Shown here one piece after another: positions 9,632-32,685 of a stretch of 53,024 nucleotides of DNA. Made by a program: the position numbers and the translations under genes. The stretch's first letter is position 1. Every line of letters starts with the position of its first letter. A model generated the notes under the pieces. The model was not told the origin of the DNA. It made no database searches and saw only the letters and a list, made by a program, of their open reading frames with translations. This DNA is from Catajapyx aquilonaris. Its lineage: Eukaryota. The stretch lies in the NCBI GenBank assembly GCA_000934665.2, contig JYFJ02002667.1:1-53024 (forward strand), read 5' to 3'.

Positions 9632-9650
9632 GTGGAGACCTGCAGAGGGG

Positions 9651-10010
9651 ATGATGAGCCTCCAGCCGCATCATGGACCAAGCCTGATGGCCACCGAAGA
9701 AGGGCAGTTCAGGTGCGTCTACTGCCTGGACGCCACCTTCAGGACCAGGCTGCAGCTGAGGGCACACCAGTTCGTACACGGGCCCAGGGACGAGGTCAAG
9801 GTGGAGCCAGAGGAGGATGCGGCACAGGGAAGGGTGGTCGTCGTAACAACGGAGGAGGAGAGGCCAACTGGAGGAGGGGATCAGCCGCACCAGAAGGAGG
9901 AAGAGTCCGTCTTGAACTCTGGTGGTGGTGACCCTCCAGGAGAAGCTGAACCTTCATTCGAATTCATTTCCATTGACGGCTGGCCTGGACAGAACAGGGC
10001 ACGTGCAGAG
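9651..10010 (+). CDS. Gene B first coding exon: C2H2 zinc finger + acidic region
   Basis: FRCVYCLDATFRTRLQLRAHQFVH (C-x2-C-x13-H-x3-H), then VKVEPE; donor GAG|GTAACC. Confidence 0.8.
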
Positions 10011-13000
10011 GTAACCTTCGTGGCGGTGAGGCGAAAATGGCAACCCTTCAGTACATTGTGTGTCCAGGTCACTATTGCCTGTTTAAATATAAACCCTACT
10101 GATGGGGTCGTAGCCTGCATGTAAAAAGTCGTCCTTATTTTTAAATGCGTTTTGGTGCTTTTTGTTTGAAGAAATCAATATTAGTTTTCGAGCTATGATT
10201 GATCTAAAATCATAATAATTATACGGTATTGTATTGCCCTCTCACTTCATGCTCAAACTTGTAGGGGTGATAGAGGGGACCAAGACAAGAATTTTTGACA
10301 TAGGAACCCGTGTCCGGAAACGCCATCTAGAGGGGGTTCATAGACAAGGAACGGGTGCGCTACTCAGGCTCGTCAGGCAAGAGGTGCTAGTCGAGCAGAC
10401 TGTTTTGTTGATAGGTGGCGTGCAGTTGTTGCCAGGTTATGGCGTATCGCGTAGTCACGTGGCGTCGTTGTAAAACAAACAACAACGGGACAAGCCATAA
10501 CCTGGCAACAACAGAACCGCTGTTGACTCTCCGCGCGTCTCCCAGGAGGCGGACTTTAGTTGCTAGATGGCTCTGCTGTTGCCAGGTTATGGCACATCGC
10601 ATCGTTGGTTACTATCCAAGCGCAATCTATCAACAAAACAGTCCGCCTCCCGCGTGACGCTTCTGAGCGCATCCCCTCTGGATGGCGTCTCCGGACACGG
10701 GTTCCTATGTCAAAAACACTTGTCTTGGTCCCCTCTATTACGGTACCACTGAAAGTCTTTGCAGAGTTACAATAAACACCCTGTATTATACCAGAACTCA
10801 AAAGAGTTTATAAATGTGTAACGAGTGGAAAAACCGGTTTCCAGATGTCGCCTTGGTAAGGGTGCAGTTTAGAGCCGCAAATGTCTTCCAGGTTTCTATA
10901 TATTTTCTGAATCTACTCGATGAGATGAGTCGAATGACACTATTCCTAGTGTGCGGAAATGCTTGGTGCAGGAGTAATTGAATTTTGAAATTGCAAGTAA
11001 TAACAATGAATAAATGAAAATAAACAAGTGTTCCTTTGTTGAAACAGTTTACTCCCATTGTTGAGTGAATGAATATCCGTGGTAATTTTAAACGTAGTTT
11101 GGGGGTTGTGTGTTCGCAGAAATACTGTCCGCCTTGTGGTGCCGTAGATGTGGGTGTTGCGGATGTGGATGTGGCAAAGCCACAATAACGTTCGTTGGCC
11201 TGCGGCGCCACAAGACGGCCAGTCAATGTTGCGGATACAGAAACCCACAATAAGCGCCCAGCTCCGCTTTCGCTCCGCAAAAACTAAAAATATCACGCAC
11301 AGGCGACGTACCGTGCCTGGCAGGGCCACAAGACGGACAGTACTGGTACAGTCACACCAACGCCTCACAGATAACACCAACACAATCAGAGTGGGGCATG
11401 CCTTGAGTAAAAGCTTAGGATTCATTTTGTTGGCGGGCAAGAGGCCTCGAGCAGTGGCCCAGGAGATACCAAGCAACCTCCCTCATTACTTCCAGGAAGG
11501 CTTGCCCAATTATTCCTGATAAGCACCGATGCAATGCCTTGGCCATGGACGCTCCTGAATGATGTTAAATTAAACTCCTACACTCTCGTTCCAACGAACC
11601 AAGAGCAACCGTTTATTTACATCATTCAGCATCCCTCACAGCTCGTTTCCACGGAGAATCACCTGACGCAACAATGGTAGTGAACAGTCTCAACAAAGGA
11701 ACACTTGTTTACTTTCATTTTATTCATTGTTATCACATGCAATTTCAAAATTCAATTACTCTTGAACCACACATTTCCGCACACTAGGGATAGTGTCATT
11801 CGACTCAGCTCATCGAGTAGATTCAGAAAATGTATAGAAACCTGCAAGATTTTTGCGGCTCTAAACTGCACCCAAGCCGTCGCCTTTTTTGGCCACTTGT
11901 TTGGTCAACGTGTTTGGTTGTCGGCCACTACGCGGCGCCACCGTCGAGTGCTGTCGAGATGAATTTCAATCAAATATGTTGATTTAATATCAAGAGGCAC
12001 ATAATTAAGAGTTATTAATCTAAACACTGACCGATATGAGGTCATGTGCGGTTAAGGAACTAATTTTGGACCGGAAACTGATGCTCAGGGCAGCTGGCCA
12101 CCCTGCACCTAACAATACAAATAATTACCTCAGCCTCGTTGTTTAGAAATCACGTTCGAATTTCGAAATGGAACAAGTTCCTTTGCCGACAATGGGGCTG
12201 TAGAGGGTTGGGTGCCGCGCGCTACTACTGCTGTTCGCGCACAGGGTCTCGGACCACATTCTTTTCGTTACCAAAGGACCCTCCACGGCTCTCGAGTTCA
12301 CAGGGAGAACGCTGTCAGGGTTGGGCAGGCAGGTGGGCCTCCCAACGGTTGTCAATGGTTCGTCTCAAACAATCGGGTGCATTGATAGGACTGCCAAATT
12401 CATGCCTTCATCCTTTGCGTAGTTAGTGGGGATATACAAGGAAGAAGGGAGGATTGAAAGTCCAGGTCACGTGGTTATGGAAATCATTGACGAAACCATA
12501 ATCGGTTACTGTTTGCATCCTTCACGCTTTCTTTTATCGTGACATACGTGGGCGAGTTACAATGGGGTTAAAGCTGTGGGATACAATCATCAATTAACTG
12601 TTAGCCGCACTCTCCACTTTGTGGATCCTGTGACTTGCGCAAACACTCGAGCAATCCAGTCGCAAGCTTGAAAGAAAAAGTAGGGAAGGGTGGAGTACCA
12701 AAGGCCACTTCTTTCCCTTCACTTGGCCAAGTTTCAATGGCGGAGGGAGATGAGAAGAACAGGAACTGATCCATTCATGGGATTCAAGTCTGTGGGCTGT
12801 CTTCTGGTTGTTACGTGGAACTCTGCTTTATTCTTGTTTTCGGGTCTTCAGGGGATTCTATTCGGGACAGATTTTGAGGTGATTATAAGATGGAATAGCC
12901 TTTGTGTTGGTGATGCTGTATGGCTTTTTGTCACCGCAACAGTACTGTCCCAGCACTCATCTTATCAGTTCGCATGGCACGAGTAAGAAGACGCCCTTTG

Positions 13001-16000
13001 TTGTGCTCGCCCGGCAACCGATTGTTTGCAACCCGTAACCAACATGTTTGGAGGGCACCCTGCTGTGCCGCGTCACTAGGTGCAGATAAACGATAGTATA
13101 ATCCAGCGCCACATTGAACTTGAGCTGTAGAGTTTTTAATGTCAAGAAATGAGGGCAATGTGAATGCACAGAAATGTTCATTGAACCTATTTTAAACGCC
13201 ATTGTGGTATTTCAGGGAGTCGAAAGTGTCAGAGCAGAGCAGCCTGCTGTGATGGAAACAATAGTTGAAGACACGTGCGGGAGTGACTCGGACTTGGACG
13301 ACAGGAGTGAAATCCAGGCTGGTGTGGAACCTGCCCCCAAACACACCATTCCTGAGGAGAGATCAGGAAGGAAGAGGACGCAAAGAAAGGTGAGATGCGA
13401 GTTTGTAGCATGACACAAATTCTGAAACTATTCCTTTTCAGGTGATTGTCCGAGAAGATGAGTACAGCACGAGAATTTCAAAAGCATCTCAAGAATTTTC
13501 AAATCTCAGTTTGCAAAATGTAAGGCCACACTTCATCAGGAATGACTTGTTGTGATTCCACACAGTTGCATTTCCCTTTGTAAGGTTAAAGTATAATCCC
13601 CGCTTGGTTAGGAGGAGGTGCCAGCGAGAGTAAGGAAGTCAAAACTGGTTGCTCGGGTCAAGGTGACGGAGCAGAGCCAGGCAGGCAGTGAGGACACGAT
13701 TCTAGCCGATGACCTCAAGAAATCCAGTGCAAAGGACAAGGAGCCAAAACCAATGGCAAGTCTCATTTCCCGTCATTAACTGGAAGGAATTATGCGTTTA
13801 AAAATATATGCTACACGCCTGCCTTGAGCAGATGAGGTCATGTATTTCCTCTACTTTGAAATATCCGTTGCAGCCGACAACTGGAAAGGAGAAAACCCAT
13901 AAGCCACGCACTCACTCACTGGCCTTCAAGGAAATGGTGCTTGATGTCTACGAGTTTGACAATTCCAAATGTCGTCACAATTATGATGCAACTGCACACA
14001 AGTTTGGAATAAGCGCATGTGCTGTGACGTATTGGGTGAAAGCCATGCGACCTCACCTCCTCGCCTGCCAACCAAAGGAAGCTGCCAATGAGATGTCAAG
14101 TAATGGGACGAAGGTAAGCCTCATCAGATTATTAAACAAAAAGGATGAGGACTCAACATCACGCAGAATAATTTCTGAATCTGCTGTATGATTGAGTGCT
14201 GGAAAGAAACAGATCAATGTCGGATAGGTACAGTTATGTACTGAGATGTTTTTTTTTTCACCTCTTAAATGCAGCCAAACTCCAGCCATCTGCATTTCCG
14301 CACATCACCTTATTATTCACTGGATTTCAAGAAGAAAGTACTGGAGGCCTACAAGTCTGGTGATTCCAGATGTCGTCACAACGTGACGGCAACTGCAAGG
14401 AAGTTCGGCCTACACCAACAAACAGTGCGGAAATGGGTGAAGTTTCTCCTGCCCCGTCTCCTTGCCCGATCAGGCCAGAGTCAGGCGGACCAATCCAGGC
14501 GAGGCAATCATGAATCTCATGAAATGAGGGTAAAGGAACTATTTCTCATGTCATCATACACTTGTTGGGACTTGCTGAAATGCCAAGTCTATGGGCATCT
14601 TTTCTAAGGGGCGAGTTAAATTTTTTGCCAAAAATACATGGCTCTCACATGTCAGGTGGGAACATATTATCGAGCGATTCCTTCTGGAGCCTAATGCATT
14701 GGCAGCACAGGGGTGCCAACCTCTCCTAGGCCCTGCATGAACCACATTTTGGTGGCTCGATGGTCGGCGATGGCAAACCTTGTCATCTCGTACTCCTCCA
14801 AAGCGCGAATAATTTGGGCTAAGTTGTATTGGTTTTTGCACAGCTATTCAAACCGTTTCACCACCGCACCGGGTACAATCGGAAGAACAATTTCGACTGT
14901 AGAACGGCTGATTCCCTGTCCAGGTTGCCAGGGAACCAGTTCAGACCAAATAATTTAAAAAGCGCGTGGGCAACAGGGAACCAACTGTTCTATTTCGGAA
15001 GTTCTCCCTCCGATTGTTCGAGGTGTGTTGGTGAAACCGTTTAAATAGCTGTGCAAAAACCGATAGCCCAAATCTCCGGCCATTTGAGCCTAAATCGTCT
15101 CAAACCATCGCAGTAAGACTTGACGTCGACAGATTTACCAGGAGGGAGAAACTCCATATGCACAATTGCATTTTTTTAAACCGACGCATCAGGCTTACCT
15201 TGAGCAGTGATATTAACTTGACAACTGATGCTGTATGATTTCCTCTACTTTTAAATTTCTGTTGCAGCCAACCTCTGGGAAAGGGACAACACACAAGAGA
15301 CGCATCCATGCACTGCCCTTCAAGGAAATGGTGCTCGATGTCTACGAGTTTAGCAATTCCAAATGTCGTCACAATGCATATGCAACTGGAAAAAAATTTG
15401 GAATAGGTGACTGTACCGTGAGCCGTTGGGTGAAAGCCATGCGACCTCATCTACTTGCACGCCAACGAAAAGAAGATGCTCATCAGATGTTCGGGAATAG
15501 TAAAAAGGTAAGCCTCATCAGGTAATAATTAAGCAGTGAGGAAGATGGATTCAAGATTATGGGTAGTAATAATAATAATAATGATGTTAGTGGAAGAGAG
15601 AAAGATTGTGTCGAGAATATAACATGTTTAAGATGTTTGTTTTCCACCTCTTCCGCAGCCAAACTCAGTGGAACTGCATATCCGCACCTCTCATAAATAC
15701 CCCCTGGATTTCAAGAAAAAGGTTCTGGAAACCTACGAGTCTGGTGATTCCACATGTCGTCACAATGCGGCTGCAACTGCGAGGAAGTTTGGCTTAAAAG
15801 GAATAACAGTGTGGTCTTGGGTGAAGTTCCTCCGACCCCAGCTGCTTGCCCGTTCAGGCCGGAGTCAGGTACGTGCCAATCAAGGCGAGGCAGAAAGGAC
15901 GAGTCATGAAATGAGGGTAAATGAACTATTATTTTTTTAAATAGCCACACTTCTGCTGGGAGTTGCAGAAATGCCAATTCCATGGAAAATTTGGGTTCCT

Positions 16001-19000
16001 CTTTGCTCCTTTGATTCTTCTAAGAGTAAGAAGGGATGCTGACAGGTTGTGTTTGGCATGAATGAGACGAGGATCCATTCAAAGTCTATGTGTCTTGGGC
16101 AGTTAGGGGGGCAGTTCAAAAGAATCGAAAAGGCACCCAGAATGTGTGCATTTTTAAATGCCAAAGTAATTATACTACATGACGCCACTGATATGCCCAC
16201 AAGGGATTTATTTTTTAAGACTACAGTAAAACTTCCAGAAGTCGAATCTCCATGGGACCGGAATTTTTTTTCGAGTTACAGAAGATTCCAGTTAGAGAAG
16301 TTTGGAATTTTTTAAGAGCCCTTACAATCGTCCCAAGGGGTGGTTAGGGGTGGGTAATCCGGAGGGGTTCGGGCGGGAGGGGAGGACAAACAGGACCTAT
16401 AAGACTTGAGGATTATAGGTCCGGTTTTTCCTCCCCTCCTGATTACGAACCCCTCACCATCCCCTGGACATGCATATTTGACCTAACATTGACAATATTT
16501 CTGATAACCATGTGACTGGTACATAGGCTACTGCTTAAATACATTTTAAAAACATGCTTACCCCTATTCAGAATTCAGTTTGAACATGCTCAAGTCTCTC
16601 AGTTGAGCTGTTGTTTCTCGTGCAAGAAAAGTGGTTGTAAAGATGGGTCCTTTTCAAAGGCCTCACATACATCGTTGCCTGCTTTCCAGGAAGAGACGTG
16701 CGGCAGTGACTCAGACTTGGACGACAAGGGTGAACTGACCACTGGTGTGAAACCTGTCGTCAAACACGCCTTTCACAATGGGAGAGCAGGAAGGAAGAGA
16801 GCACAAAGAGGGGTGGGGAGGAGAGTTTGACGCAAGACACAAATTCTAAAACTATTCCTTTTCAGGCCAATGTCCGTGAAGATGACTGCAGCGCAACAAA
16901 TTCAAAACCATCTCGACATGTTTCAAAACCAAAGTTGCAAAATGTAAGAACATTTGTACAGTGTTATGCAATAACGAGTCAACCCGCATGAGAACAGTGT
17001 TGTGGGAAAAGGGGCTTTGAAGGTCACAACTCTGGAATTAATTCACTGTCCTTTTCGGTCATTCATGGCAGAAGCATGCAGATTTCGCCAGCTTGCTTTT
17101 AACTTATTCCAGTGCGATCCTTTGGGCATCATGGGATTAACTCGATTTCGACATTTTTGTTGGTTGACACATTATTCCATGACACCTTCCATTTCGTCAG
17201 GAGTGACTTGTTGTGATTGCAGAGTTGCATTTCCCTCGACAAATTTGAGTGAATTCCCTGCCCGTTTAGGTGGAGGTGCCAACAAGAGGAAGGAAATCAA
17301 AACTGGTTGCTCAAGTTAAGATGAAGGAACAGAGTCAGGGAGGAATTGAGGACGCAATCACCGATGATGGCCTCAAGACATCCGGTGCGAAGGACAAGGA
17401 ACCAAAACGAATGGTAAAATTCATTTTCTGTCAAGGCTGATGAAATTCCTTTAAATAAAATATGCCAACTGAGGCTGTAAGATTTCCTCTCCTTTTAAAT
17501 ATCCATTGCAGCCGACCTCTGGAAAAGGGACAACCCGTAAGCCACGCATCCACTCACTGGCCTTCAAGGAAAAGGTGCTTGATGTCTACGAGTTTGACAA
17601 TTCAGAATGTCGTCACAATGAAAATGCAACTGCAAGAAAGTTTGGAATAAGCTCATTTGCTCTGAGGTATTGGGTGAAAGCCATGCGACCTCACCTCCTC
17701 GCCTGCAGACGAAAGGAAGATGCTCATCAGACGTCAAGCAATGGGACAAAGGTAAGCCTCATCAGATGATTAAGCAATGAGGATGTGGACTCCAGGTCAT
17801 AGGAAATAATTACCAAAGCTGCTGTATGCTTGAGTCCTTGAAAGAAAGAGCTCATGATTGTTGGATAGACAGTTATGTTCAAAATCGTTTGTTGTCCATG
17901 TCTTTTGCAGCCAAACTCAGGCGAACTGCAAATCCGCACATCGCAATACTCCCTGGATTTCAAGAAGAAAGTGCTGGAAGCCTACCAGTTTGGTGATTCC
18001 ACTTGTCGTCACAACACGGGTGCAACTGCTAGGAAGTTCGGATTACCAAAGGCAACAGTGATGTATTGGGTCAAGTTTCTCCTGCCCCGTCTCCTAGCCC
18101 GATCAGGCCAGAGTCTGGCCTACAAATCAAGACAAGGCAATCATGAATCTCATGAAATGAGGGTAAAGGAACTATTTTTATTATCATCATACATTTGTTG
18201 GGACTTGCTGAAATGCCAAGTCTATGGACTTCTCATATACAGGCTATAGTTTATTTCCCCCCGGAAAATGCAGGGCTCTCACAGGTTGGCAGCTTGTCAG
18301 GCATTATCGAGAGCTTCCGATTGGAGCCTAATGCACTGGCACCACAGGTGTATGTGGCAGCCTCTCCAGGCCCTCCAGGAACCACTTTTTGGTGGGGTAG
18401 CGTGCCCATTCCCGGACAACTGCTTCCTGTTCAACAATGTCCTCGAAATGGCAATGGCGAATGAGTTTTTCTACGGCTCTGAACAGGTGAAAGTCACTGG
18501 GGGCCAGTTCAGGGTAGTACGGCGGGTGTGGAAGCATCCACAACCAGATCCATGGAAACATCCCTTCACAGACACCATTTCAAGGACATTGATGACAGTT
18601 GTTGACTGTGTGCAGTTGTCCGGGAGAGGGTGCTTAGCATCATGAAATTGGTTCTTCGAAGGCCTGCAGGGGTGTGTCAATCGAAATTCCTTGTTAGCCC
18701 AGATATGCCGAGTGTCCCCTACAGGGGACACCTGCACAGTTGTTATATTTTAATTTTTTTGAGCTGGTTCTTCTGATGCTAAAGAGCTGGCAGTAGTCGC
18801 GGGTGATTCAGTAGAGTCCCAGCTAACGATGCAAGTTCAAACCTGCTCAAATATTGCTTCAGCTTTTTAAGATACAGGTGTTTGATTTTTAACGCAGGAA
18901 ATAATGGCTTCACCTCCACGTTCCAAATATGATTACCAATTAATTCTCAAATTTGATTAATGTTATGAGTTATGAGCGACACATTGAACTGGAGCTGCAG

Positions 19001-22000
19001 AGTTTTTTGTGTCAAGAAATGAGGGCAATGTGAATGCACAGAATGCACTGAACCTATTAAAACTTCATTGTGGTATTTCAGGGAGTCGAAAGTGTAAGAG
19101 CAGAGCAGCCTGATGTGATGGAAACAATAGTTGAAGACACGTGTGGGGGTGACTCCGACTTGGACGACAGTAGTGAAATCCAGGCTGGTGTGGAACCTGC
19201 CCCGAAACGCACCATTCCTGACGAGAGATCAGTCTGGGAGAGAGCCCAAAGAAAGGTGAGATGCGAGTTTGTAGCATGACACAAATTCTGAAACTATTCC
19301 TTTTCAGGTGATTGTCCAAGAAGATGAGTACAGTACAAGAAATTCAAAAGCATCTCGAGAAGTTTCAAATCTCAGTTTGCAAAATGTAAGAACACACCTC
19401 GTCAGGAATGACTTGTTGTGAATCCACAGTTCCATTTCCGTTTGCAAGGTTAAGTAAAATCCCTGCTTGTTCAGGTGGAGGTCCCAGTGAGAGTAAGGAA
19501 GTCAAAACTGGTTGCTCGGGTCAAGATGACAGAACAGAGCCAGGCAGGCAGTGAGGACACGATTCTAGCCGATGACCTCAAGACATCCAGTGCAAAGGGC
19601 AAGGGACCAAAACCAATGGTAAGTCTCACTTTCCGTCATGAACATGACGAAATTATGCCTTTAAAAAATATGCTACAGGCCTGCCTTGAGCAGATGAGGT
19701 CATGTATTTCCTCTACTTTTAAATATCCGTTTCAGCCGACCTCTGGAAAGGGGAAAACCAGTAAGCGAAACATCTACTCACTGGCATTCAAGAAAAAGGT
19801 GCTTGATGTTTACGAGTTTGACCATTCAGAATGTCGTCACAATGTAAATGCAACTGCTAAGAGGTTTGGAATGAGCTTTAGTCTTGTGAGATATTGGGTG
19901 AAAACCATACGACCTCACCTCCTTGCCTGCCAACCAAAGGAAGATGTTGATCAGACGTCCAGCAGTGGGACAAAGGTAAGCCTCATCAGATTATTAAGCA
20001 ATGAGGATGTGGATTCACGGTCATAGGAAATAATTGCGAAAGCTGCTGTATGCTTGAGTCCATGAGAGAAAGAGATCAATGTTGGATATAGACAGTTATG
20101 TTCAAAGGTGTTTGTTTTCCACCTCTTTTGCAGTCAAACTCAGGCAATCTGCATATCCACACATCACAATCTTATTCACTGGATTTCAAGAAGAAAGTGC
20201 TGGAGGCCTACAAGTCTGGTGATTCCAGATGTCGTCACAACGTGATGGCAACTGCAAGGAAGTTTGGCATACCCCAACAAACAGTGTGGAAATGGGTCAA
20301 GTGTCTCCTGCCCCGTCTCCTTGCCCGATCAGGCCAGAGTCAGGCGGACCAATCCAGGCGAGGCAATCATGAATCTCATGAAATGAGGGTAAAGGAACTA
20401 TTTCTCATGTCATCATACACTTGTTGGGACTTGCTGAAATGCCAAGTCTATGGGCATCTTTTCTAAGGGGCGAGTTAAATTTTTTGCCAAAAATACATGG
20501 CTCTCACATGTCAGGTGGGAACATATTATCGAGCAATTCCTTCTGGAGCCTAATGCATTGGCGGCACAGGTGTGCCAACCTCTCCCAGGCCCTGCAAGAA
20601 ACAAATTTTGGTGGCTCGATGGTCGGCGATGGCAAACCTTGTCATCTCGTACTCCTCCAAAGCGCGAATAATTTGGGCTAAGTTTTATTGGTTTTTGCAC
20701 AGCTATTCAAACCGTTTCACCACCGCACCGGGTAAAATCGGAAAAACCATTTCGACTGTAGAACAGCTGATTCCCTGTCCAGTTGCCAGGGAACCAGTAC
20801 AGACCAAATAATTTAAAAAGTGCGTGGGGAACCAACTGTTCTATTTCGGAAGTTCTCCCTCCGATTTTTCGAGGTGTGTTGGTGAAGCCGTTTAAATAGC
20901 TGTGCAAAAACCAATAGCCCAAATCTCCGGCCATTTGAGCCTAAATCGTCTCAAACCATCGCAGTAAGACTTGACGTCGACAGATTTACCAGGAGGGAGA
21001 CACTCCATATGCACAATTACATTTCTTTTAAACCAATGCATCAGGCTTACCTTGAGCAGTGATATTAACTTGACAACTGATGCTGTATGATTTCCTCTAC
21101 TTTTAAATTTCCGTTGCAGCCGACCTCTGGGACAGGGACAACCCGCAAGCGACCCACCCATTCACTGGCCTTCAAGGAAATGGTGCTCGATGTCTACGAG
21201 TTTAGCAATTCCAAATGTCGTCACAATGCATTTGCAACTGGAAAAAAGTTTGGAATAGGTGACTGTACTGTGAGCCGTTGGGTGAAAGCCATGCGACCTC
21301 ATCTACTTGCCTGCCAACGAAAAGAAGATGCTCATCAGATGTTAGGGAATAGTAAAAAGGTAAGCCTCATCAGGTAATGATTAAGCAGTGAGGAAGATGG
21401 ATTCAAGATTATGGGTAGTAATAATAATAATAATGTTGTTTGTGGAAGAGAGGAAGATTGCGTCGAGAATATAACATGTTTAATATGTTTGTTTTCCACC
21501 TCTTCCGCAGCCAAACTCAGTGGAACTGCATATCCGCACCTCTCATAAATACCCCCTGGATTTCAAGAAAAAGGTTCTGGAAACCTACGAGTCTGGTGAT
21601 TCCACATGTCGTCACAATGCGGCTGCAACTGCGAGGAAGTTTGGCTTAAAAGGAATAACAGTGTGGTCTTGGGTGAAGTTTCTCCGACCCCAGCTGCTTG
21701 CCCGTTCAGGCCGGAGTCAGGTATGTACCAATCAAGGCGAGGCAGAAAGGACAAGTCATGAAATGAGGGTAAATGAACTATTATTTTCTTAAATAACCAC
21801 ACTTATGCTGGGATTAGTCAGTGATGGCAGAAAAAATAGAGATTCCCAGATTATTGTCTGTTCACTTAGTTAAGAGCCCTGGCAATCGTCCCAAGGGGTG
21901 GTGAAGGGTGGGTAATCAGGAGGGGTTCGGGCGGGAGGGGAGGACAAACAGGACCTATGAGACTTGAGGATTATAGGTCCGGTTTTTCCTCCCCTCCCGA

Positions 22001-25000
22001 TAACGCACCCCTCACCATCCCCTGGACAATAGCGAAAGGCTCTTAAGTAAGTGAGCAAACAATAACAAGGGACATGCATATTTGACCTAACATTGGCAAC
22101 TAATATTTCTGATAACCATGTGACTGGTGCATAGGCTACTGCTTAAATACATTTTAAAAACATGCTTACCCCTATTAAGAATTCAGTTTGAACATGCTCA
22201 AGTCTCTCAGTTGAGCTGTTGTTTCTCGTGCAAGAAAAGTGGTTGTAAAGATGGGTCCTTTTCAAAGGCCTCACATACATCGTTGCCTGCTTTCCAGGAA
22301 GAGACGTGCGGCAGTGACTCTGACTTGGACGACAAGGGTGAACTGACCACTGGTGTGAAACCTGTCGTCAAACACGCCTTTCACAATGGGAGAGCAGGAA
22401 GGAAGAGAGCACAAAGAGAGGTGGGGAGGAGAGTTTGACGCAAGACACAAATTCTAAAACTATTCCTTTTCAGGCCAATGTCCGTGAAGATGACTGCAGC
22501 GCAACAAATTCAAAACCATCTCGACATGTTTCAAAACCAAGGTTGCAAATTGTAAGAACATTTGGACAGTGTTATGGAATTACGAGTCAACCCACATGAG
22601 AACAAAGTTGTGGGAAAAGGGGCTTTGAAGGTCACACCTCTGAAATTAATTCAGTGTCCTTTTCGGTCATTCTTGGCAGAAGCATGCCGATTTCGCCAGC
22701 TTGATTTTAACTTATTCCAGTGCGATCCTTTGGGCATCATGGGATTAACTCGATTTCGACATTTTTGTTGGTTGACACATTATTCCATGACACCTTCCAT
22801 TTCGTCAGGAGTGACTTGTTGTGATTGCAGAGTTGCATTTCCCTCGACAAATTTGAGTGAATTCCCTGCCCGTTTAGGTGGAGGTGCCAACAAGAGGAAG
22901 GAAATCAAAACTGGTAGCTCAAGTTAAGATGAAGGAACACAGTCAGGGAGACAGTGAGGACGCAATCACCGATGATGGCCTCAAGACATCCGGTGCGAAG
23001 GACAAGGAACCTAAACGAATGGTAAGACTCATTTTCTGTCAAGAACAGGATGAAATTACTTTAAAAAAACTATGCCAACTGAGGCTGTAAGATTTACTCT
23101 ACGTACTTTAAAATATCTGTTGTAGCCGACCTCTGGGAAAGGGACAATGCGTAAAAGAAAAGGCTACTCACTGCCTTTCAAGAATAGAGTGCTTGATGTC
23201 TACGAGTCTGACAATTCAGAATGTCGTCACAATGCAGCTGCAACTGCAAAAAAGTTTGGAATAGGCTCACGTGGTCTGAGGTATTGGGTGAAAGCCATGC
23301 GACCTCACCTCCGTGCCTGCCAACCAAAGGAAGATGCTCATCAGACGTCAAGCAATGCGACAAAGGTAAGCCTCATCAGATTATTAAGCAAGGAGGATGG
23401 GGACTCCAGGTCATCGGAAATAATTGCGAAAGCTGCTGTATGCTTGAGTCCTTGAAAGAAAGAGCTCGTGTTGGATAGACAGTTATGTTCAAAATCGTTT
23501 GTTTTCCATGTCTTTTGCAGCCAAACTCAGGCGAACAGCAAATCCGCACATCACAATACTCCCTGGATTTCAAGAAGAAAGTGCTGGAGGCCTACCAGTT
23601 TGGTGATTCCACTTGTCGTCACAACACGAGTGCAACTGCAAGGAAGTTTGGCGTAAATCAACCCACAGTGTGGCATTGGGTCAAGTTTCTCCTGCCCCGT
23701 CTCCTTGCCCGATCAGACCAGAGTCAGGCCTACAAATCAAGACGAGGCAATCATGAATCTGATGAAATGCGGGTAAAGGAACTATTTTTATTATCATCAT
23801 ACATTTGTTGGGACTTGCTGAAATGCCAAGTCTATGGACTTCTCATATACAGGCTACAGTTTATTTTCCTCCGGAAAATACAGGGCTCTCACAGGTTGGC
23901 AGCTTGTCAGGCATTATCGAGAGCTTCCGATTGGAGCCTAATGCACTGGCACCACAGGTGTGGCAGTTGCTCCAGGCCCTCCAGGAACCACTTTTTGGTG
24001 GGGTCGCGTGCCCACTCCCGGACAACTGCTTCCTGTTCAACAATGTCCTCGAAATGGCAACGGCGAATGAGTTTTTCTACGGCTCTGAACAGGTGAAAGT
24101 CACTGGGGACCAGTTCAGGGTAGTACGGCGGGTGTGGCATCATCTAAACCCGGATCCATGGAAGAATTCCCTTCACAGACACCATTTCAAGGACATTGAT
24201 GACAGTTGTTGACTGTGAGCAGTTGTCCATGAGCTGGTGCTTAGCATCACGAAATTGGTTCTTGGAAGGCCTGGAGATGTTGGCACAGCCGTGGTGCCAG
24301 TGCATTCGGCTCCAGGAGGATTCTATTGATAATGTGTGCCCAACTCAAAAATCGCTCCGATATCCGGCGCCCTTGAGCAAAACCCAATATTGCCCAAAAA
24401 ATTAATCGTATTGAGATATGCAAAACAGGCCTACTCTCGGCAGAGTAAGGCCTGTTACAAGAAAATGGATACAGATAGAAATATTTTGACTTCCAATTCA
24501 AACTCAGCGCATACTAATACTAACTAATACACAATAAAAAATGAAAATTGCTCATTTAACAAAACCATTGTTAATTGTTCATATATGAGGTGTGATCGAA
24601 AGTTCCCAGACTTTGTTCATAAAAACATTAATATTTACTTTAAGTCCTTAATTTCCACTGCCACCTTGGGCACGTATACAATGATCCCAGCGAATTTCCA
24701 ATTTTTGGAAGCACCCCAAAAAATTGGTCAACCATAGCTTGTTCAGCACCTGCTACGATTTTGCTTAGATCTCTTTAGTGGAGTCAGAATGGCTCCTTTT
24801 CTACCCAAATTTCATTTTAGGGAAGAGGTAGAAATCACATGGGGTCAGGCCAAGCGAATAGGAAGGGAAGGGAACAGTGGTCATGTTGTTTTTTTGTCTG
24901 GAAGTCCCTACTTGACGCGTGGGGTGTGTGCAAGAGGCATTGTCATGGTGCAGCAACCAGTCCCTGTTCTTTCACATCTCCGGCCATTTAGGCCTACGTC

Positions 25001-28000
25001 TCAAACCATCGCAGTAAGACTTGCCGTTGACAGTTTCACCAGGAGGGGGAAACTCCCTATGCACAAATCCTATTACGTCAAAGAATATGATCAGCATCGA
25101 GTTGATTTTGATGCGAACTTGGCGCGCCACCATTGATGCTGTTAGACCACACACATGTTATTGCCTGTCTTACAGCTTGCTCATCAAAAGCCTTGTTCAG
25201 CATTCGGTGGGTTGCAGCCCAAGTTTTGTTGAGCTGGAAGCAGAATTTGATACAAATCATTTGCTCCGTAACATCAGCCATTTCGAAAAATCGCAGAAGC
25301 ACAAGAACGCGGTGTCAAGAAAACTGCTGCAACTCGGAAACATGTGCACCTCTGAAGACGATATTTTTCAGACTAATAGCTCAAAGGTGCTCCTGGCGCC
25401 CGCTAGAGTCACAAGATCTGACCTCCACTGGTTTTCGCGGTATATCGAAAATCCAGGAAATTTTCGATCACACCTCGTATTAGTCACATTGTTCGATGTG
25501 CAAAGTACTTTCCGCAAAATAACGTATGGCTGTTACAAAAAAAAGGAGGGTGATGGACACTTTCTGACTTCATATTCGGAACCATCTCATATGAATGCAT
25601 TAGAGACAGCTGAAATTGTTCATGTGCCAAAAACCTTGTTGACTAGTTTCATTTTCGTATGGCCCTCCTATTTTTACAAAATAACATGAACTCTTCCCGG
25701 ACTGATTTTCAAACCCTAATTGGACAGGTGCCTTTTCGTGGCAACTGCAACACCTGTCCCGACCTGCCCTATTAGGATTTGAAAAACTTGTTATCAATTG
25801 TTATTGATCTTGCACGGTTCAGGCTTAACATTGGGAAATATGTGAGTTGAGGGTCACGTTCGAATTCCATCATGAACATGAAGAAATTACATTTTTAAAA
25901 GAAATTATGCATTAGGCCTACCTTGAGTGGTGATATTAACATGGTAACTGAGGCTGTAAGATTTCCTCTAGCTTTAAATATCTGTTGCAGCCAACCTCTG
26001 GGAAAGGGACAACCCGCAAGAGACGCGTCCATGCACTGGCCTTCAAGGAAATGGTGCTCGATGTCTACGAGTTTAGCAATTCCAAATGTCGTCACAATGC
26101 ATGTGCAACTGGAAAAAAGTTTGGAATAAGTGACTGTACCGTGAGCCGTTGGGTGCAAGCCATGCGACCTCATCTACTTGACTGCCAACCAAAGGAAGAT
26201 GCTCATCAGATGTTAGAGAATAGGAAAAAGGTAAGCCTCATCAGGTAATAATTAAGCAATGAGGAAGATGGATTCAAGATTATGGGTAGTAATACGTATT
26301 ACTAAATCTGCCACATACGTCAGGGCTGGAAAGAAAGAGAGCAAGATTGTGTTGACAATATAATATTATGTTCAAGATGTTTGTTTTCCACCTCTTCCGC
26401 AGCCAAAGTCAGGGAAACTGAAAATCCGCACGTCACCTTTTTATTCACTGGATTTCAAGAGAAAAGTGCTGGAAGCCTACAAGTCTGGTGATTCCAAATG
26501 TCGTCACAATGTGGCTGCAACTGCAAGGAAGTTTGGCGTACCACAAGGAACAGTGAGGCAGTGGGGGAAGTTTTTCCGACCCCGACTCCTTGCCCGTTCA
26601 ACCCAGGATCAGGTACGTACCAATCAAGGCCAGGCACTCATGGAAGGACTAACCCCTACGAAGAATCCACTTTGAACATGCTCAAGTCTCTCGGTTAAGC
26701 AAGTGTTTCTCGTGGAAGAAATTGCGACCCATTTTTACAGCACTTTTCTTCTCGTGGAAGAAAAGTGCTGTAAAGATGGGTCGCAATTTCTTTTCAAAGG
26801 CCTCGCTTCATTGTTGTCTGCTTTCCAGGAAGAGGCGTGTGGCAGTGACTCAGACTTGGAAGACAGGGATGAAGTTACGCCAAGTGTGAAACCTGCCCCC
26901 AAACACGCCATTCCCAACGAGGGAGCAGGAAGGAAGAGAGCACGAAGAAAGGTGGAAAATAGGGTTTGTAGGAAGACGCAAGTTCTAAAACTAATCCTTT
27001 TCAGGTCCAAGAAGATGACTGCAGCACCGCCAATTCAAAACCATCTGGACATGTTTCAAAACCAAGGTTGCAAAATGTAAGAGCATTTGGACAGTCCTAT
27101 GCAATAATGAGTCAACCCACATGAGAACAGTGTTGTGAGAGGAAGGGCTTTGAGGGTCACACCTCTGGAATTAATTCGGTGTCCTTTTCCGTCATTCATG
27201 GCAGAATTCGCCAGCTTGATTTTAACTTGATCAAGTGCGATCCTTTGGGCGTCATGGGATTAGCTCAATTTCGACTGTTTTGTGAGCTGACACATTATTC
27301 CATGGCACCTTCCATTTCGTCAGGAGTGACTTGTTGTGATTGGAGAGTTGCATTTCCCTCAACAAATTTGAGTGAATTCCCTGCCTGTATAGGTGGAGAT
27401 GCCAAAAAGAGGACGGAAATCAAAACTGGTAGCTGAAGTGAAGATGAAGGAACAGAGTCAGGAAGGCAGTGAGGACGCAATCACCGATGATGACCTCAAG
27501 ACATCCAGTGCAAAGGACAAGGAACCTAAACGAATGGTAAGACTCATTTTCTGTCATGAACAGGATGAAATTACTTTAAAAAAACTATGCCAGCTGAGGC
27601 TGTAAGATTTACTCTACTTTTACAAATATCCATTGCAGCCGACCTGTGGAAAAGGGACAACCCATAAGACACGCGGCTACTCACTGGCCTTCAGGGAAAA
27701 GGCGCTTGATGTCTACGAGTTTGGCAATTCCAAATGTCGTTACAATGCAGCTGCAACTGCAAAAAAGTTTGGAATAAGCTCACGTGGTCTGAGATTTTGG
27801 GTGCAAGCCATGCGACCTCACCTCCGTGCCTGCCAACCAAAGGAAGATGCTGCTCACAAGTCAGGGAATGGGACAAAGGTAAGCCTCATCAGATTATTAA
27901 GCAATGAGGATGTGGATTCCAGGTCATAGGAAATAATTGCGAAAGCTGCTGTATGCTTGAGTCCTTGAAAAAAAGAGATCAATGTTGGATATAGACAGTT

Positions 28001-30906
28001 ATGTTCAAAGGTGTTTGTTTTCCACCTCTTTTGCAGTCAAACTCAGGCAATCTGCATATCCGCACCTCATCTCATTATTCACTGGATTTCAAGAAAAAAG
28101 TGCTGGAGGCCTACCAGTTTGGTGATTCCACATGTCACAATGCAGCTGCAACTGCAAGGAAGTTTGGCCTACCCCAACCAACAGTGAAGCATTGGGTCAA
28201 GTTTCTCCTGCCCCGTCTCCTTGCCCGATCAGGTCATAGTCAGGCGGACCAATCAAGACGAGGCAATCATGAATCTCCTGAAATGAGGGTAAAGGAACTA
28301 TTTTTATTATCATCATACATTTGTTGGGACTGGCTGAAATGCCAAGTCTACGGGCTTCTTGTCTACCGTGTGCAGTTTATTTTCCCTTCAAAATTACATG
28401 GCTCTCACAGGACAGGTGCCATTTCGTGGCAATTGCAACACCCGTCCTGTTAAGGTTTGAAACAATAATTATTATCAATCATTATTGATCCTGCAGTGTT
28501 TAGGCTTAACAATTGTAAATCTGCGTTGATGGTCAAGTTTGAATTCGGTAGGCCGCAATCATGAAAAGCCAATCACCATGCTGGATGTCAGTTTGCTTAT
28601 TTTTGCTCGCTGTTTGACGAACATCCAAATTTGCCACCTTCTGCATGACAGTCCCATTTACACACTTGATTGGTTAGTGTGCCAGGGGTATCAACAGACC
28701 TTTCACTCTCTCCCGCCAATCAATTGTTGGCGATGCACCTTTGCCAAGGCGCCAGGAGCCCACCCACCCCGCCCGCCCTACCCCACCCTCCTTGTAAGGT
28801 TCAGATAAACTCTAGATCAGCCCATGTGATTTTTCTGGCAGTGATTAGGCCAGGCCCTCCACAGGTCTCTGAATGGAGACGTCACACCAGTTTATTTCTG
28901 CCTGGTTTCAGGAAGAGGAGTTACACGAGAGGGACAAAGAAGCGAGAGTAGGGAAATCAAAACTGGTTGCTCGATTCAAGTTGATGGGACAGAATCAGGG
29001 AGGAAGTGAGGACCTCAACACATCCAGTGCCAAGAAGAAGGAACCAAAGCCAATGGTAATAATTCCTACACATGCAGATTAGTCACTATAGTTATATGTA
29101 GATTGAATAGTTATTCCCCTTTAAAGAAGTCAAATTTTCCGAGCAATATTTTCCAAGAAACTGCAAAATATGATCTAATATGCTTATTCCAGCTAAATTA
29201 TATCAGTGAGGGGAAGGGATAAATGTTTTTATTACCACACTGTGTGTCTCTGTTGGGACTTGCTGAAATGCCAAGTATCTGAACTTCTTCTCTACGGGCT
29301 GCTTTTGCTCCTTTGTCTCTTCTCGACGTAAAGATGAGTTTTCATGTGAGCGATTTGAGCGGTAACATCGCTGAGTAACCTGAGTAACCAGTGTTGTTGG
29401 AGGAGAAAGTAGATTGTTACTTTCACCTCAAACAATGTTGGTTACTTTGCATGTCAAGTCACTCTCATGTAAACGCATCTTATGGGGAAGGAAACACAGG
29501 ATGGGGACAGGTTGTGTTTGACATGAATGGTGCAGAACTCCTTTAAAATTCTTGCACTTTGGTGCACTTTAGCCCTGCAAAAATATTGCAGGTTTCTATG
29601 GATTCCCTTAATGTACTTGATGAGCCGAGTCGAGCCTCTTGCTTACCAACAAGTGTTGCCCTAAAAGCCATCTTGTGATTGTCGATTATCATTCAAGGCA
29701 TGTATTCCACCGCTGACTTTGTGGCTGTTGTCTGCGTGGCGTTGGAGTGACAGAACCGGTACTGCCCGTCTTGTGGGCCAGCCAGGCATGGTATGTCACC
29801 TGGTGTGATGATATTAGTTAATTGGGGGCGTTAGCGAGCAGGGCACTTATTGTGGGTTGTGTAGTCAAGTATATTGAGGAAGAATATTGAAACCTGCAGA
29901 AAGAAGATAAAGAAAGAGTTTGCAGGGGCCAGTTGTCCTCTTCAGGTGACAGTCCAAGGAGACCGTGATGTTGTAATAAACACTTAGCTGCCTATCCGGC
30001 CATCAGCGTACTCGACGTTTCTCCCCACTACATTTTTTAAATGCCTTGATCCAACGAGTGCCTCATGAGTGAGAATCAATCTTGTCTCTTCCATCACCTG
30101 TGCAGCCTACTTCAGGTGGAGCGAGAGGACGCCAGTCACGCTACTCACTGGATTTCAAGGAGAAAGTGATGGATGCCTACGAGTTTGGTGATTCCAAATG
30201 TCGTCACAACGCATATGCAACTGCAAAGAAGTTTGACTTAAACATAGGAATGGTGTGGTATTGGGTGAAGGTCCTCCGACCCCATCTCCTGGCCTCCCCA
30301 GCCCAGAGTCAGACGTGCCAACCAAGGCGAAAAGCTGATGAAAGAACAAGGGAGGAAACAAAGGTAAGCAAGCGACTCATCAGATTACCTAGTGATGGCT
30401 GGAAAAGCGCATAAACCCAGACGACAAAAGAATGTATCTGTCCAACCGTACTATGGCAGCCATTATTATTTTATTATAACTTACAAATGAAGGAAGTGCA
30501 GAGTTACTGTCAATGATGCAATTAAATTGGTAACCACTACAAACATTCCACATTAAGAACATGCTCTAATTTTGTGTTCGGTAGTAGACTAGAGAATTTG
30601 CAAACTGGAAAGTTGTATGATCTTAATATCATTTTTCATTCATTTCCTGTGCAGCCTCCCCAGAAGGAAGCGGAACCCTCTGGGTCCCTCACCCAGTCGA
30701 TGGACTTGAAGAGGAAGGTGCTGGACGCATTCGAGTTTGGAGATTCCTCATGTCGTCACAACCTGGAAGCAACTGCCAGGAAATTCTGTCTCAGCACCAC
30801 CACAGTGTGGTACTGGATCAGATACATTCGACCCCACCTCCTCTCCAAGAGTCAGATGAATCCACCAAATCAAAACTCTGATGAAAGGAATGGTGGTACA
30901 AAGTAA
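9651..30906 (+). CDS. Gene B: C2H2-ZF + 18 Brinker-type HTH domains, ~35 coding exons, ~2,200 aa if all are included
   Basis: ZF exon 9651-10010. Linker exons 13216-13389, 13442-13519, 13612-13755 (GC donor), 16690-16812, 16866-16943, 17270-17413, 19082-19255, 19308-19385, 19475-19618, 22298-22420, 22474-22551, 22878-23021, 26829-26951, 27005-27076, 27393-27536, 28912-29055. 18 BrkDBD exons listed separately. All phase 0 and open. Confidence 0.75.
10271..10737. mobile_element. MITE with ~65-bp TIRs
   Basis: TAGAGGGGACCAAGACAAG...CTTGTCTTGGTCCCCTCTA; internal GTTGCCAGGTTATGGC repeats. Confidence 0.75.
12447..12750 (+). mobile_element. Merlin / ISXO2-like (IS1595 family) transposase relic
   Basis: GRIESPGHVVMEIIDET; WASYNGVKAVGYNHQLTVSRTLHFVDPVTCANTRAIQS; HLAKFQWRR resemble Merlin motifs GGPGxxVEIDE, HxTVNHSxxFVDP, YLxEFxWR. 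Confidence 0.7.
13874..14113 (+). CDS. BrkDBD exon B1 (type I)
   Basis: 240 nt; GISACAVTYWVK. Confidence 0.8.
14275..14529 (+). CDS. BrkDBD exon B2 (type II)
   Basis: 255 nt; GLHQQTVRKWVK. Confidence 0.8.
14620..15165 (-). mobile_element. Mariner relic interrupted by ~250-bp hairpin MITE (14814-15073)
   Basis: Shares sequence with mariner copies at 2520 and 25000; GGTTTTTGCACAGCTAT...ATAGCTGTGCAAAAACC inverted arms. Confidence 0.65.
15268..15507 (+). CDS. BrkDBD exon B3 (type I)
   Basis: 240 nt; GIGDCTVSRWVK. Confidence 0.8.
15659..15868 (+). CDS. BrkDBD exon B4 (type II; alternative donor after 15916)
   Basis: 210/258 nt; GLKGITVWSWVK. Confidence 0.75.
17512..17751 (+). CDS. BrkDBD exon B5 (type I)
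   Basis: 240 nt; GISSFALRYWVK. Confidence 0.8.
17911..18162 (+). CDS. BrkDBD exon B6 (type II)
   Basis: 252 nt; GLPKATVMYWVK. Confidence 0.8.
18260..18670 (-). mobile_element. Mariner transposase fragment
   Basis: LPHPPYYPELAPSDFHLF. Confidence 0.8.
19736..19975 (+). CDS. BrkDBD exon B7 (type I)
   Basis: 240 nt; GMSFSLVRYWVK. Confidence 0.8.
20134..20388 (+). CDS. BrkDBD exon B8 (type II)
   Basis: 255 nt; GIPQQTVWKWVK. Confidence 0.8.
20480..21015 (-). mobile_element. Mariner relic + hairpin MITE (duplicate of 14620-15165)
   Basis: Near-identical to 14620-15165; LPPGKSVDVKSYCDGLRR. Confidence 0.65.
21120..21359 (+). CDS. BrkDBD exon B9 (type I)
   Basis: 240 nt; GIGDCTVSRWVK. Confidence 0.8.
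21511..21720 (+). CDS. BrkDBD exon B10 (type II; alternative donor after 21768)
   Basis: 210/258 nt; GLKGITVWSWVK. Confidence 0.75.
23126..23365 (+). CDS. BrkDBD exon B11 (type I)
   Basis: 240 nt; GIGSRGLRYWVK. Confidence 0.8.
23521..23772 (+). CDS. BrkDBD exon B12 (type II)
   Basis: 252 nt; GVNQPTVWHWVK. Confidence 0.8.
23870..24340 (-). mobile_element. Mariner transposase fragment
   Basis: MPHPPYYPELVPSDFHLF...LPHLWCQCI. Confidence 0.8.
24584..25479 (-). mobile_element. Internally deleted mariner element with both TIRs
   Basis: TA-TGAGGTGTGATCGAAA ... TTTCGATCACACCTCG-TA; minus-strand EQMICIKFCFQLNKT and MLIIFFDVIGFVHREFPPPGETVN. Confidence 0.85.
25991..26230 (+). CDS. BrkDBD exon B13 (type I)
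   Basis: 240 nt; GISDCTVSRWVQ. Confidence 0.8.
26403..26612 (+). CDS. BrkDBD exon B14 (type II)
   Basis: 210 nt; GVPQGTVRQWGK. Confidence 0.75.
27639..27878 (+). CDS. BrkDBD exon B15 (type I)
   Basis: 240 nt; GISSRGLRFWVQ. Confidence 0.8.
28037..28288 (+). CDS. BrkDBD exon B16 (type II)
   Basis: 252 nt; GLPQPTVKHWVK. Confidence 0.8.
30106..30363 (+). CDS. BrkDBD exon B17
   Basis: 258 nt; DLNIGMVWYWVK. Confidence 0.8.
30655..30906 (+). CDS. BrkDBD exon B18 (invariant terminal domain)
   Basis: CLSTTTVWYWIR; ends in TAA. Confidence 0.8.
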   Translation, partial: PPQKEAEPSGSLTQSMDLKRKVLDAFEFGDSSCRHNLEATARKFCLSTTTVWYWIRYIRPHLLSKSQMNPPNQNSDERNGGTK

Positions 30907-31173
30907 ACAAATCTCTAAATGCAATGTGCAATTAGTGTGAGACATCGGGACCACAATGTAAAGGACAGATCCATTCCGTAAGACTTTTTTTTTGATTGGG
31001 CACTAAAATTACTTCACCTTGTATAGCAGACTCCAGTAGTTATAACCAAGGTTTGTCATATTGTAACACACAGGGCAGATGTGGTGTGGACCAACCTTTC
31101 GAGACTGTTGTATCCAGGGCTATTATATCAAGCGTCAACTGTACTAGAACAGAATGTATTAAAATTGCATCAG

Positions 31174-31338
31174 GCACTTCAATTGCGCGGCTCCAACTGC
31201 AAGACATGTACCGCATCTGTGTGGCGAAGGAACAACAGCAAGCGAGTGCGCAATGCTTGCGGACAGTACTTCAAAGTGTATGGTGGGAATCTGACTCTGA
31301 CCCCAGGGAAGAATGTCATCAAAAGTTATAGCTGGTGA
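31174..31338 (+). pseudogene. GATA-type zinc-finger exon behind gene B (two Cys lost)
   Basis: CAG|ALQLRGSNCKTCTASVWRRNNSKRVRNACGQYFKVYG...*. Confidence 0.7.
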
Positions 31339-32429: not shown

Positions 32430-32685
32430 AGTAATTGACCAGTTCGAATAATCCCGCCAGATATCGATGGACACGCCCTATCGGCATCGCCAGGGAGGAG
32501 ATTGACGATTTCCGGGTAGGTCTCGCGTCGATAGGATCTTCCCACCGAGAGTCTCTCTTCTTATTCCATCATTTAATTCTTCTTCCTCCTCCTCTGGACC
32601 TCAAGAGTCTTCTTCTTCTTGTCTGGTGAGTCTGTGGCTTCCTCTTGCCCATCTTGAATTACCCATTGTTTGGGCACGTGCACAG
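32430..32685 (+). promoter_or_regulatory. Putative promoter / 5'UTR of gene C
   Basis: TATCGATG at 32462; intron 32626-32685. Confidence 0.5.

Follow-up and report, generated by a model that had tools for sequence, protein, structure and literature searches.

The stretch of DNA considered here (the window) is contig JYFJ02002667.1 of the Catajapyx aquilonaris assembly GCA_000934665.2, analysed at its full length of 53,024 nucleotides (nt). On its forward strand lies a tandem array of 38 intact exons (1798–50357, + strand), grouped into four super-units, in which the coding capacity for a helix-turn-helix (HTH) domain is repeated. A six-frame hmmsearch recovered 38 full-length copies of this 50-residue domain at 76.7–97.5 bits, all of them on the + strand and none containing a stop codon. 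Two of the exons, designated B6 and B12, hold matching positions in an internal duplication of the array and differ mainly in a short patch that covers the helix by which the domain would read DNA.

Comparisons of profile and predicted structure indicate that each exon of the array encodes a single three-helix HTH module of the Brinker type (Pfam PF09607). The Pfam BrkDBD cut-off of 23.4 bits was passed by five of six scanned exons, including B5 (32.4 bits), B6 (24.5), B12 (28.2) and the exons at 5032 (25.6) and 38876 (31.6), and a C-type exon (7484–7789) gave no Pfam family at E 0.01. A profile built from 33 of the domain copies matches the solved Brinker domain, 2glo_A, with an E value of 5.6e-9. 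In addition, the AlphaFold2 model of the module (predicted local distance difference test score, pLDDT, of 95.5) places helices at residues 2–14, 23–30 and 34–44, and Foldseek ranks 2GLO, the DNA-bound Brinker domain, first among its matches (root-mean-square deviation 1.2 Å over 40 columns, probability 1.00, E 0.069). Helix 3 of Brinker is the recognition helix and sits in the major groove.

The internal duplication was delimited by BLAST and MAFFT self-alignment together with the exon map. Repeat unit 1 (13105–18666, + strand) holds exons X, Y, B1, B2, B3, B4, X′, Y, B5 and B6, and repeat unit 2 (18975–24273, + strand) holds X, Y, B7–B10, X′, Y, B11 and B12. BLAST of the window against itself pairs 13105–15961 with 18975–21813 (91.9% over 2861 nt) and 16466–18666 with 22070–24273 (93.5% over 2216 nt), the offset between the units dropping from 5870 to 5604; this 266-nt change is located at 15962–16310. 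With MAFFT, 388 of 5241 aligned columns are mismatched (7.4%). An earlier note, made from the sequence alone, had described a young and near-identical duplication. Duplicate units of 5.6–5.9 kb do exist and are 92.6% identical overall, but the near-identity does not hold, as mismatches range from 0 to 28 per 100 nt along the units and form a mosaic of 0–1%, 6–10% and approximately 20% blocks. Nearly identical blocks (0–1 mismatches per 100 nt) occur at 14466–14665, 15674–15823, 16468–16917 and 17118–17317, an intermediate block with 6–13 mismatches per 100 nt occupies 13105–13860, and broad blocks of about 20 mismatches per 100 nt span all of B1/B7 and B5/B11. Because of this mosaic along both units, the idea of a simple young duplicate was rejected. 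When divergence was followed along the units, as the same note had proposed, the single sharp peak of the alignment fell inside B6/B12.

Contigs from DNA runs X1–X3 (one sample) and from X5 (data of unrecorded kind, from another study) were also aligned to the window. The places 18353–18640 and 24255–24300 are joined on opposite strands by contigs from both the DNA runs and X5, suggesting that each repeat unit carries an inverted repeat element at its 3′ end. In the DNA runs, summed contig depth is in the thousands at 15836–16669, 18338–19171, 22508–22924 and 24176–24999 and approximately 100–300 over exons; the high-depth bins are probably interspersed repeats.

Exon B6 (17911–18162, + strand) comprises 252 nt, or 84 codons, in phase 0 at both ends, and carries one Brinker-type HTH. 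Its acceptor, a pyrimidine tract followed by CAG, lies 48 nt 5′ of the FK codon, and its donor (AGG/GTAAAG) is found at +204. The positional counterpart, B12 (23521–23772, + strand), has the same splice signals; the two are 90.8% identical over 250 nt and are reciprocal best matches within the window. The limits given in the earlier note, 17911 and 23772, coincide with the predicted start of B6 and the predicted end of B12, and the two 30-nt helix sequences quoted there are each unique in the window (18040–18069 in B6 and 23650–23679 in B12). Over the core cluster at 18040–18066, the exons are mismatched at 12 of 27 nt, compared with 30 of 673 in the remainder of 17768–18475 (binomial P 5.7e-10; Fisher P 3.9e-9), and at least 12 core mismatches were reached in 0 of 5000 local shuffles and in 1 of 2000 shuffles of the whole alignment. 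The claim that B6 and B12 differ mainly in the reading helix is therefore borne out. The flanking introns are mismatched at 8 of 146 and 4 of 150 nt, and the exon minus the variable codons described below at 12 of 225; as the helix codons are the more divergent, comparison with the introns leaves the claim standing.

When three nearby changes are added, the divergent patch extends over 18019–18066 of B6, corresponding to domain codons 24–39, and over 23629–23676 of B12 (both + strand; alignment register offset 5610). It then differs at 15 of 48 nt and 7 of 16 residues, the replacements from B6 to B12 being G24S, L32V, P33N, K34Q, A35P, M38W and Y39H. By the helix limits of the AlphaFold2 model, the patch reaches from the beginning of helix 2 across the turn into helix 3, of which it includes the first two turns. 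Three of its codons hold two to three changes each, and three silent changes (18030, 18039 and 18042 in B6) are found just 5′ of the replaced codons. In B6 the codons with these silent variants read GCT, TTC and GGA. Silent changes beside the patch thus amount to 3 per 8.7 sites versus 4 per 41.8 elsewhere in the exon, an excess with a Poisson P of 0.05 if the exon rate is the reference and 0.006 if the intron rate is.

The cluster of differences falls on positions that are variable throughout the family. The proportion of nonsynonymous differences (pN), computed within the A-type exons (13), within the B-type exons (15) and across 37 exons of the array, is 0.4–0.7 at positions 23, 24, 33, 34, 35, 38, 39 and 43, and 0–0.2 at most others. 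Residues K5, V8, N22, T26, F30 and W40 are invariant across the exons. The eight variable codons are near saturation, and the peptides they specify come in 34 distinct forms among the 38 exons. In helix 3 the variable positions are spaced i, i+1, i+4, i+5 and i+9, which amounts to one face of the helix, and the opposite face (T36, V37, W40, V41 and L44) is conserved and is presumably the core-facing side. Considering this periodicity and the homology to the Brinker–DNA complex, the variable residues would be the ones that contact DNA.

Selection on these codons was gauged from 16 independent nearest exon pairs with a scaffold distance below 0.12. In the variable codons, 95.2 nonsynonymous differences over 306.5 sites and 16.8 silent differences over 77.5 sites give a ratio of nonsynonymous to silent divergence (pN/pS) of 1.43 (Fisher P 0.13), and in the scaffold codons the ratio is 0.36 (P 3e-8). 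The scaffold is under purifying selection. Nonsynonymous divergence is approximately 10 times higher in the variable codons than in the scaffold (P 3e-39); silent divergence is also 2.1-fold higher there (P 0.018), a figure that pathway averaging over multi-hit codons may inflate.

The ratio in the variable codons is indistinguishable from 1, just as it would be if constraint were relaxed or a mutational hotspot were present, such that helix codons drift or mutate fast with no functional meaning. This explanation has to contend, however, with family members in which the same codons stand still. The four C-type domains, one per super-unit (7583–7732, 30697–30846, 40411–40560 and 50208–50357, + strand), are identical at 147–148 of 150 nt in all six pairs, helix and silent sites included, although the introns flanking them are about 63–87% identical or barely alignable; such identity points to strong constraint or to very recent conversion limited to the exon. 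Likewise, these codons hardly vary among the four A-type exons whose helix reads …DCTVSRW, where patch distances are 0.067–0.133. Since the helices of both groups are conserved, mutability of the sequence does not explain the variability. Moreover, neutral drift cannot yield 44% divergence beside flanks at 4–5%, and the open frames and the six invariant residues are kept in all 38 exons. Drift or a hotspot is accordingly regarded as a very improbable source of the B6/B12 difference.

Other duplicated exon pairs show how far the pattern extends. B2 (14275–14529, + strand) and its partner B8 (20134–20388) differ at 17 of 255 exon nt, 5 of them among the 27 nt of variable codons. Within the HTH domain all five replacements are single-nucleotide changes in or beside variable codons, and on the downstream side of the pair 231 nt (14445–14675) are identical between the units. 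The claim that B2 and B8 differ mainly in the helix is thus only partly right, as seven further replacements occur in the N-terminal linker. For B5 (17512–17751, + strand) and its partner B11 the same claim had to be abandoned, with 33 of 240 nt different across the entire exon and only 6 of these in the 27 nt of variable codons. Differences are also exon-wide in B1/B7 (48 of 240 nt, with 12 of 27 in variable codons). Helix 3 is the same in B3/B9 and in B4/B10, as had been stated; B3/B9 differ at 15 of 240 nt and B4/B10 at 4 of 258, each with 1 of 27 in variable codons. B4/B10 have no replacement inside the 50-residue domain and two near the C-terminal end of the exon, but as these copies are almost identical throughout, their unchanged helix says little.

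Exchange between paralogous exons can be demonstrated at this locus. The clearest case is B11 (23126–23365, + strand), a chimera whose left part resembles one A-type exon (6516–6755, + strand) and whose helix patch resembles another (27639–27878, + strand). Against 6516–6755, B11 is off at 5 of 168 nt in the left part and at 17 of 63 in the helix patch, whereas against 27639–27878 the helix patch is off at 4 of 63 and the left part at 29 of 166. The exon at 6516–6755 in turn has a helix patch in common with B7 (5 of 63 nt off), the left parts of these two differing at 47 of 167. The block at 23026–23330, which includes part of B11, is 91.8% identical to 6416–6720 versus 84.6% to its partner at B5, and the 300 nt directly upstream of that block are 98.0% identical between the units. 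B1 and B7, too, are each better matched elsewhere than by the other. In a four-gamete, PHI-like test, adjacent informative sites are more compatible than when shuffled, and 0 of 5000 permutations reached the observed value in either seven B-type exons (63 informative sites) or six A-type exons (55 informative sites). B11 and 6516–6755, with like scaffolds and unlike patches, repeat the picture seen in B6/B12.

Two explanations of the B6/B12 difference were put forward in the earlier note, namely short-patch gene conversion and strong positive selection. The first gains from the paralogue exchange just described. For B6/B12 it is further favoured by the codons with multiple changes, by the adjoining silent changes and by a patch divergence (0.40 over 30 nt) on a par with that between other members whose scaffolds are close (0.40 for B8/B12 and 0.367 for B12 and the exon at 28079). 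The reading that we favour, with modest confidence, combines an exchange of the patch with a paralogue outside the window and retention of the result because distinct helices are favoured. B6 and B12 are positional counterparts in a mosaic duplication within a tandem exon array, and their differences cluster on the hypervariable, presumably DNA-reading surface of the family (positions 23, 24, 33, 34, 35, 38, 39 and 43). This surface comprises two residues that open helix 2, the single residue preceding helix 3, and that side of helix 3 which faces outward. The scaffold is held by purifying selection and mixed repeatedly among paralogous exons, by ectopic gene conversion or unequal recombination, and copies that carry different helices would be retained. 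A conserved and mixed scaffold together with retained, distinct helices would produce neighbouring modules that have nearly identical frames and introns and yet read different DNA, much as in zinc-finger arrays. In the case of B6/B12, the likeliest event would be replacement of a patch of approximately 46 nt (up to approximately 116 nt) from a putative donor paralogue beyond the window.

Several observations weigh against this reading. No donor for the B6 or the B12 helix occurs in the window, the nearest of the 35 other exons being 7 of 27 nt off in each case. The silent-site excess beside the patch is borderline, and the pathway averaging of the NG86 method may create spurious silent steps in multi-hit codons. 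When 18019–18066 was polarised on five related exons, 7 changes were derived in B6, 2 in B12 and 6 were ambiguous. Both copies have therefore changed in the patch, B6 more than B12, and one replacement cannot account for everything. Among B8, B12 and a B-type exon at 28079–28225, variable codons differ by 37–40% with 0 silent differences at the conserved codons within or beside the patch, which fits either point changes restricted to variable codons or import from donors whose silent states are the same. (The exon at 28079–28225 lacks one codon, R20, reading CHN for CRHN, and is otherwise intact.) The chimeric structure of B11 can be explained by a single breakpoint instead of a short patch. 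Finally, a pN/pS of 1.43 is not significantly greater than 1, so selection for helix diversity, which would maintain the different copies, is unproven.

Several of the same observations would be expected if point mutations had been fixed by strong positive selection after the duplication, each copy moving towards a new DNA specificity with no templated exchange. The lack of a donor in the window, the derived changes on both the B6 and the B12 lineages, the zero silent differences among B8, B12 and the exon at 28079, and a point estimate of pN/pS above 1 all suit this explanation, as do the five single-nucleotide domain replacements of B2/B8, in or beside variable codons and followed by 231 identical nt. 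It would demand, however, a roughly ninefold excess over the neutral rate (12 of 27 nt versus flanks at 4–5%), bringing the patch to the level of divergence seen between other family members, with two to three hits in single codons. Nor would it predict the three adjoining silent changes that go with the patch, and the ratio on which it leans falls short of significance at a locus where exon-to-exon exchange is demonstrably active. Selection on point mutations alone is therefore considered unlikely.

It is also conceivable that the patch is old and its flanks young. B6 and B12 would then be older paralogues whose scaffold and introns have been homogenised by conversion, with helix-erasing conversions selected out. 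The 0–1% blocks that adjoin 6–10% blocks in the duplication fit such a history, as do the scaffold distances of 0.035–0.044 among B6, B8, B12 and the exon at 28079, set against distances of 0.37–0.40 in the 30-nt patch (0.40 for B6/B12, 0.40 for B8/B12 and 0.367 for B12 and the exon at 28079). The patches of B6 and B12 are, moreover, both unlike those of other paralogues. On the other hand, this history calls for two conversion tracts that stop on opposite sides of one 46-nt stretch. In B8, B12 and the exon at 28079, the silent sites of the scaffold also looked, by eye, about as divergent as the introns, so purifying selection alone may explain the scaffold without special homogenisation. An old patch and an imported one are indistinguishable on the data of the window; the old patch is judged rather improbable.

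An assembly artefact, in which reads of other paralogues were merged into B6 or B12, deserves mention given the many similar copies. As many as 2171–2315 contigs of the DNA runs fall on 12.5 kb, most of them at 90–95% likeness, and among the matches listed no contig piece spans either patch. Yet the reading frame and the invariant residues are preserved across the patch, which conforms to the pattern of the whole family; its flanks, left and right, match specifically between B6 and B12, and among 40 of the 364 rows of differing letters none falls in either patch. An artefact is thus scarcely credible.

Beyond the duplicated units, the array is laid out as super-units of recurring exon order at approximately 1169–9951, 13276–33011, 34576–43760 and 45492–52164 (+ strand). 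Each runs through exon X, exon Y, A-type/B-type HTH pairs, a D- or E-type HTH, a C-type HTH, a GATA-type finger and a C2H2-like exon, with 3, 8, 2–3 and 1 A/B pairs in the four super-units, respectively. Exon X is acidic and contains an in-frame ATG, and exon Y is a linker; in repeat unit 1 the latter appears to use a GC donor (ATG/GCAAGT, 13753–13761), judging by KPMASL where other copies have KPMVSL. GATA-type zinc-finger exons lie at 8044–8202, 31027–31335 and 50643–50867 (+ strand), and the two that were scanned scored 26.8 bits (8044–8202, at the cut-off) and 34.3 bits (50643–50867) against Pfam GATA; a pattern search of super-unit 3 found no GATA motif. C2H2-like exons with a conserved acidic tail (…EPSFEFISI…) close super-units at 9708, 32765 and 43574, and the corresponding exon of super-unit 4 is without the first Cys motif. 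A 206-nt direct repeat (91%; 333–538 and 11926–12131) precedes the X exons in super-units 1 and 2 and may form part of the 5′ ends of these super-units. The CpG observed/expected ratio of the window is 0.59, and Rfam gave no match in it at gathering scores.

Splice signals are widely kept. In all 37 exons examined, a pyrimidine tract and a phase-0 AG acceptor are found 39–51 nt 5′ of the conserved FK codon, and 28 of the 37 have a phase-0 GT donor at +189, +201 to +207 or +210. In the four C-type exons the donor is in phase 2 or went undetected by the donor pattern. Another five of the 37, all B-type (domain starts 4609, 26445, 35613, 36025 and 46530), lack a donor or have only a weak one. Their reading continues to a stop codon beyond …VRTNQ…, in three of the five beyond …VRTNQGQALVKGE…; these could be terminal exons or decaying copies. 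As 28 of the 37 keep both donor and acceptor, the exons of the array look internal rather than terminal. They are presumed to be expressed. A weak hint of splicing comes from X5, as 45% of its aligned material continues into unlike sequence versus 3% for the DNA runs. Four of eight listed X5 pieces end 0–5 nt from predicted splice sites (13612, 13754, 22295 and 23767, compared with predicted 13612, 13755, 22298 and 23772), and one contig matches exon Y of unit 1 (13612–13754) without a mismatch before turning unlike. These breakpoints are compatible with spliced RNA, though no proof of it.

The lola and mod(mdg4) genes of Drosophila contain arrays of alternative 3′ exons, each encoding a different DNA-binding domain. 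The present array shares with them many same-strand exons, variant DNA-binding modules and an origin by tandem duplication. Their variant exons are terminal, however, whereas 28 of 37 exons here keep a phase-0 acceptor and a standard donor, and exons resembling N-terminal and C-terminal ends are present separately in every super-unit. A scan of 29 of the 198 open reading frames (ORFs) of at least 75 amino acids detected no BTB exon and no other shared 5′ exon. A lola-like array of terminal exons was rejected on the strength of the phase-0 donors at standard positions. In the same set of ORFs, no Pfam domain other than BrkDBD and GATA was detected. An array of transposon copies was likewise rejected, as those ORFs held no transposase domain, but with only 29 of 198 ORFs scanned this rejection is weak.

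The Brinker DNA-binding domain of Drosophila (PF09607; 2GLO) has the same three-helix fold and the same signature, FK..VL..Y...C..N..ATARK[FY]....W. A profile search of 1.84 billion representative proteins returned 211 at E ≤ 0.001, and the best relatives have two to three domains with a near-constant helix (IHRRQIQKW or INRRQVQKW in seven of seven examined), in contrast to the 38 modules and 34 reading surfaces of the array. The Brinker-like recognition helix (..HRRQIQKW..) is not seen in the exons of the window, with their 34 different variable peptides, and the array is likened to Brinker by its predicted domain, with no claim of orthology to brinker. Four library matches with at least five matched stretches were examined, and they match the HTH core only; one, a long protein of eukaryotic appearance, contains repeats of the CENP-B/pogo type, and the other three look bacterial. 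The three bacterial-looking proteins (P0005, P0080 and P0086) have 7–13 tandem HTH repeats, with helices varying among repeats, and constitute an independent case of poly-HTH arrays. A word-index protein search with exon B6 gave no match, and the ESM Atlas yielded only generic transposase-type HTH clusters from bacteria. Literature searches on the BrkDBD/Brinker DNA-binding domain found no description of such an exon array, and nothing relevant emerged from searches combining recognition helix, exon duplication, positive selection and gene conversion, or Brinker, pipsqueak, domesticated and tandem.

Peptide-binding exons of the major histocompatibility complex (MHC) undergo short-tract gene conversion within multigene families. 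A patchwork of short motifs, replacements clustered at ligand contacts and raised silent divergence at those sites are common to both systems. The ligand here would be DNA rather than peptide, the units are exons of one array, and the window holds no B6/B12 donor.

Passer/pogo transposases and POGK have an HTH of the BrkDBD type as their first DNA-binding motif, according to a published account (PMC7386202); this HTH is of the same Pfam type as the modules of the array. Descent of the module from a transposase is possible by this likeness of domain. The array differs, however, in consisting of predicted spliced exons, and no DDE domain was present in the 29 of 198 ORFs scanned. A draft pufferfish genome has been credited with 42 BrkDBD genes in another paper (PMC4263296), and no relation to the present array is implied.

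In behaviour, the closest analogue is found in the C2H2 finger arrays of PRDM9 and the KRAB zinc-finger genes, where DNA-binding modules also stand in tandem, their scaffold conserved and only a few contact positions hypervariable. Concerted evolution together with proposed positive selection is discussed for such arrays by Oliver et al. 2009 (PMC2779102). The differences lie in the fold, which is a zinc finger there and an HTH here, and in the arrangement, a coding minisatellite within one exon as opposed to one module per exon with introns of 0.1–2 kb; an excess of pN/pS over 1 is, moreover, not significant in the HTH array.

By analogy, the locus could conceivably represent an undescribed kind of modular poly-HTH gene, with one Brinker-type module per phase-0 exon (at most 18 per super-unit) joined to GATA and C2H2 fingers. 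The helices of such a gene would diversify in the manner of KRAB and PRDM9 fingers, its modules may be derived from pogo/Passer, and it may be in conflict with repeats or other fast-moving DNA targets. This broader proposal is offered tentatively, as a possibility that we regard as doubtful.

C2H2 zinc fingers are known for arrays with fast-changing contact residues, and these underlie the turnover of recombination hotspots and the silencing of transposons. If the present interpretation is true, the array would be an HTH counterpart with one module per exon, and this evolutionary mode would be independent of the zinc-finger fold. As a compact example, the locus also lends itself to telling gene conversion and selection apart in exon arrays. 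Furthermore, it would supply natural pairs of modules distinguished by little besides the reading helix (B6/B12 and, as far as the HTH domain is concerned, B2/B8), from which a recognition code for Brinker-type HTH domains could be read.

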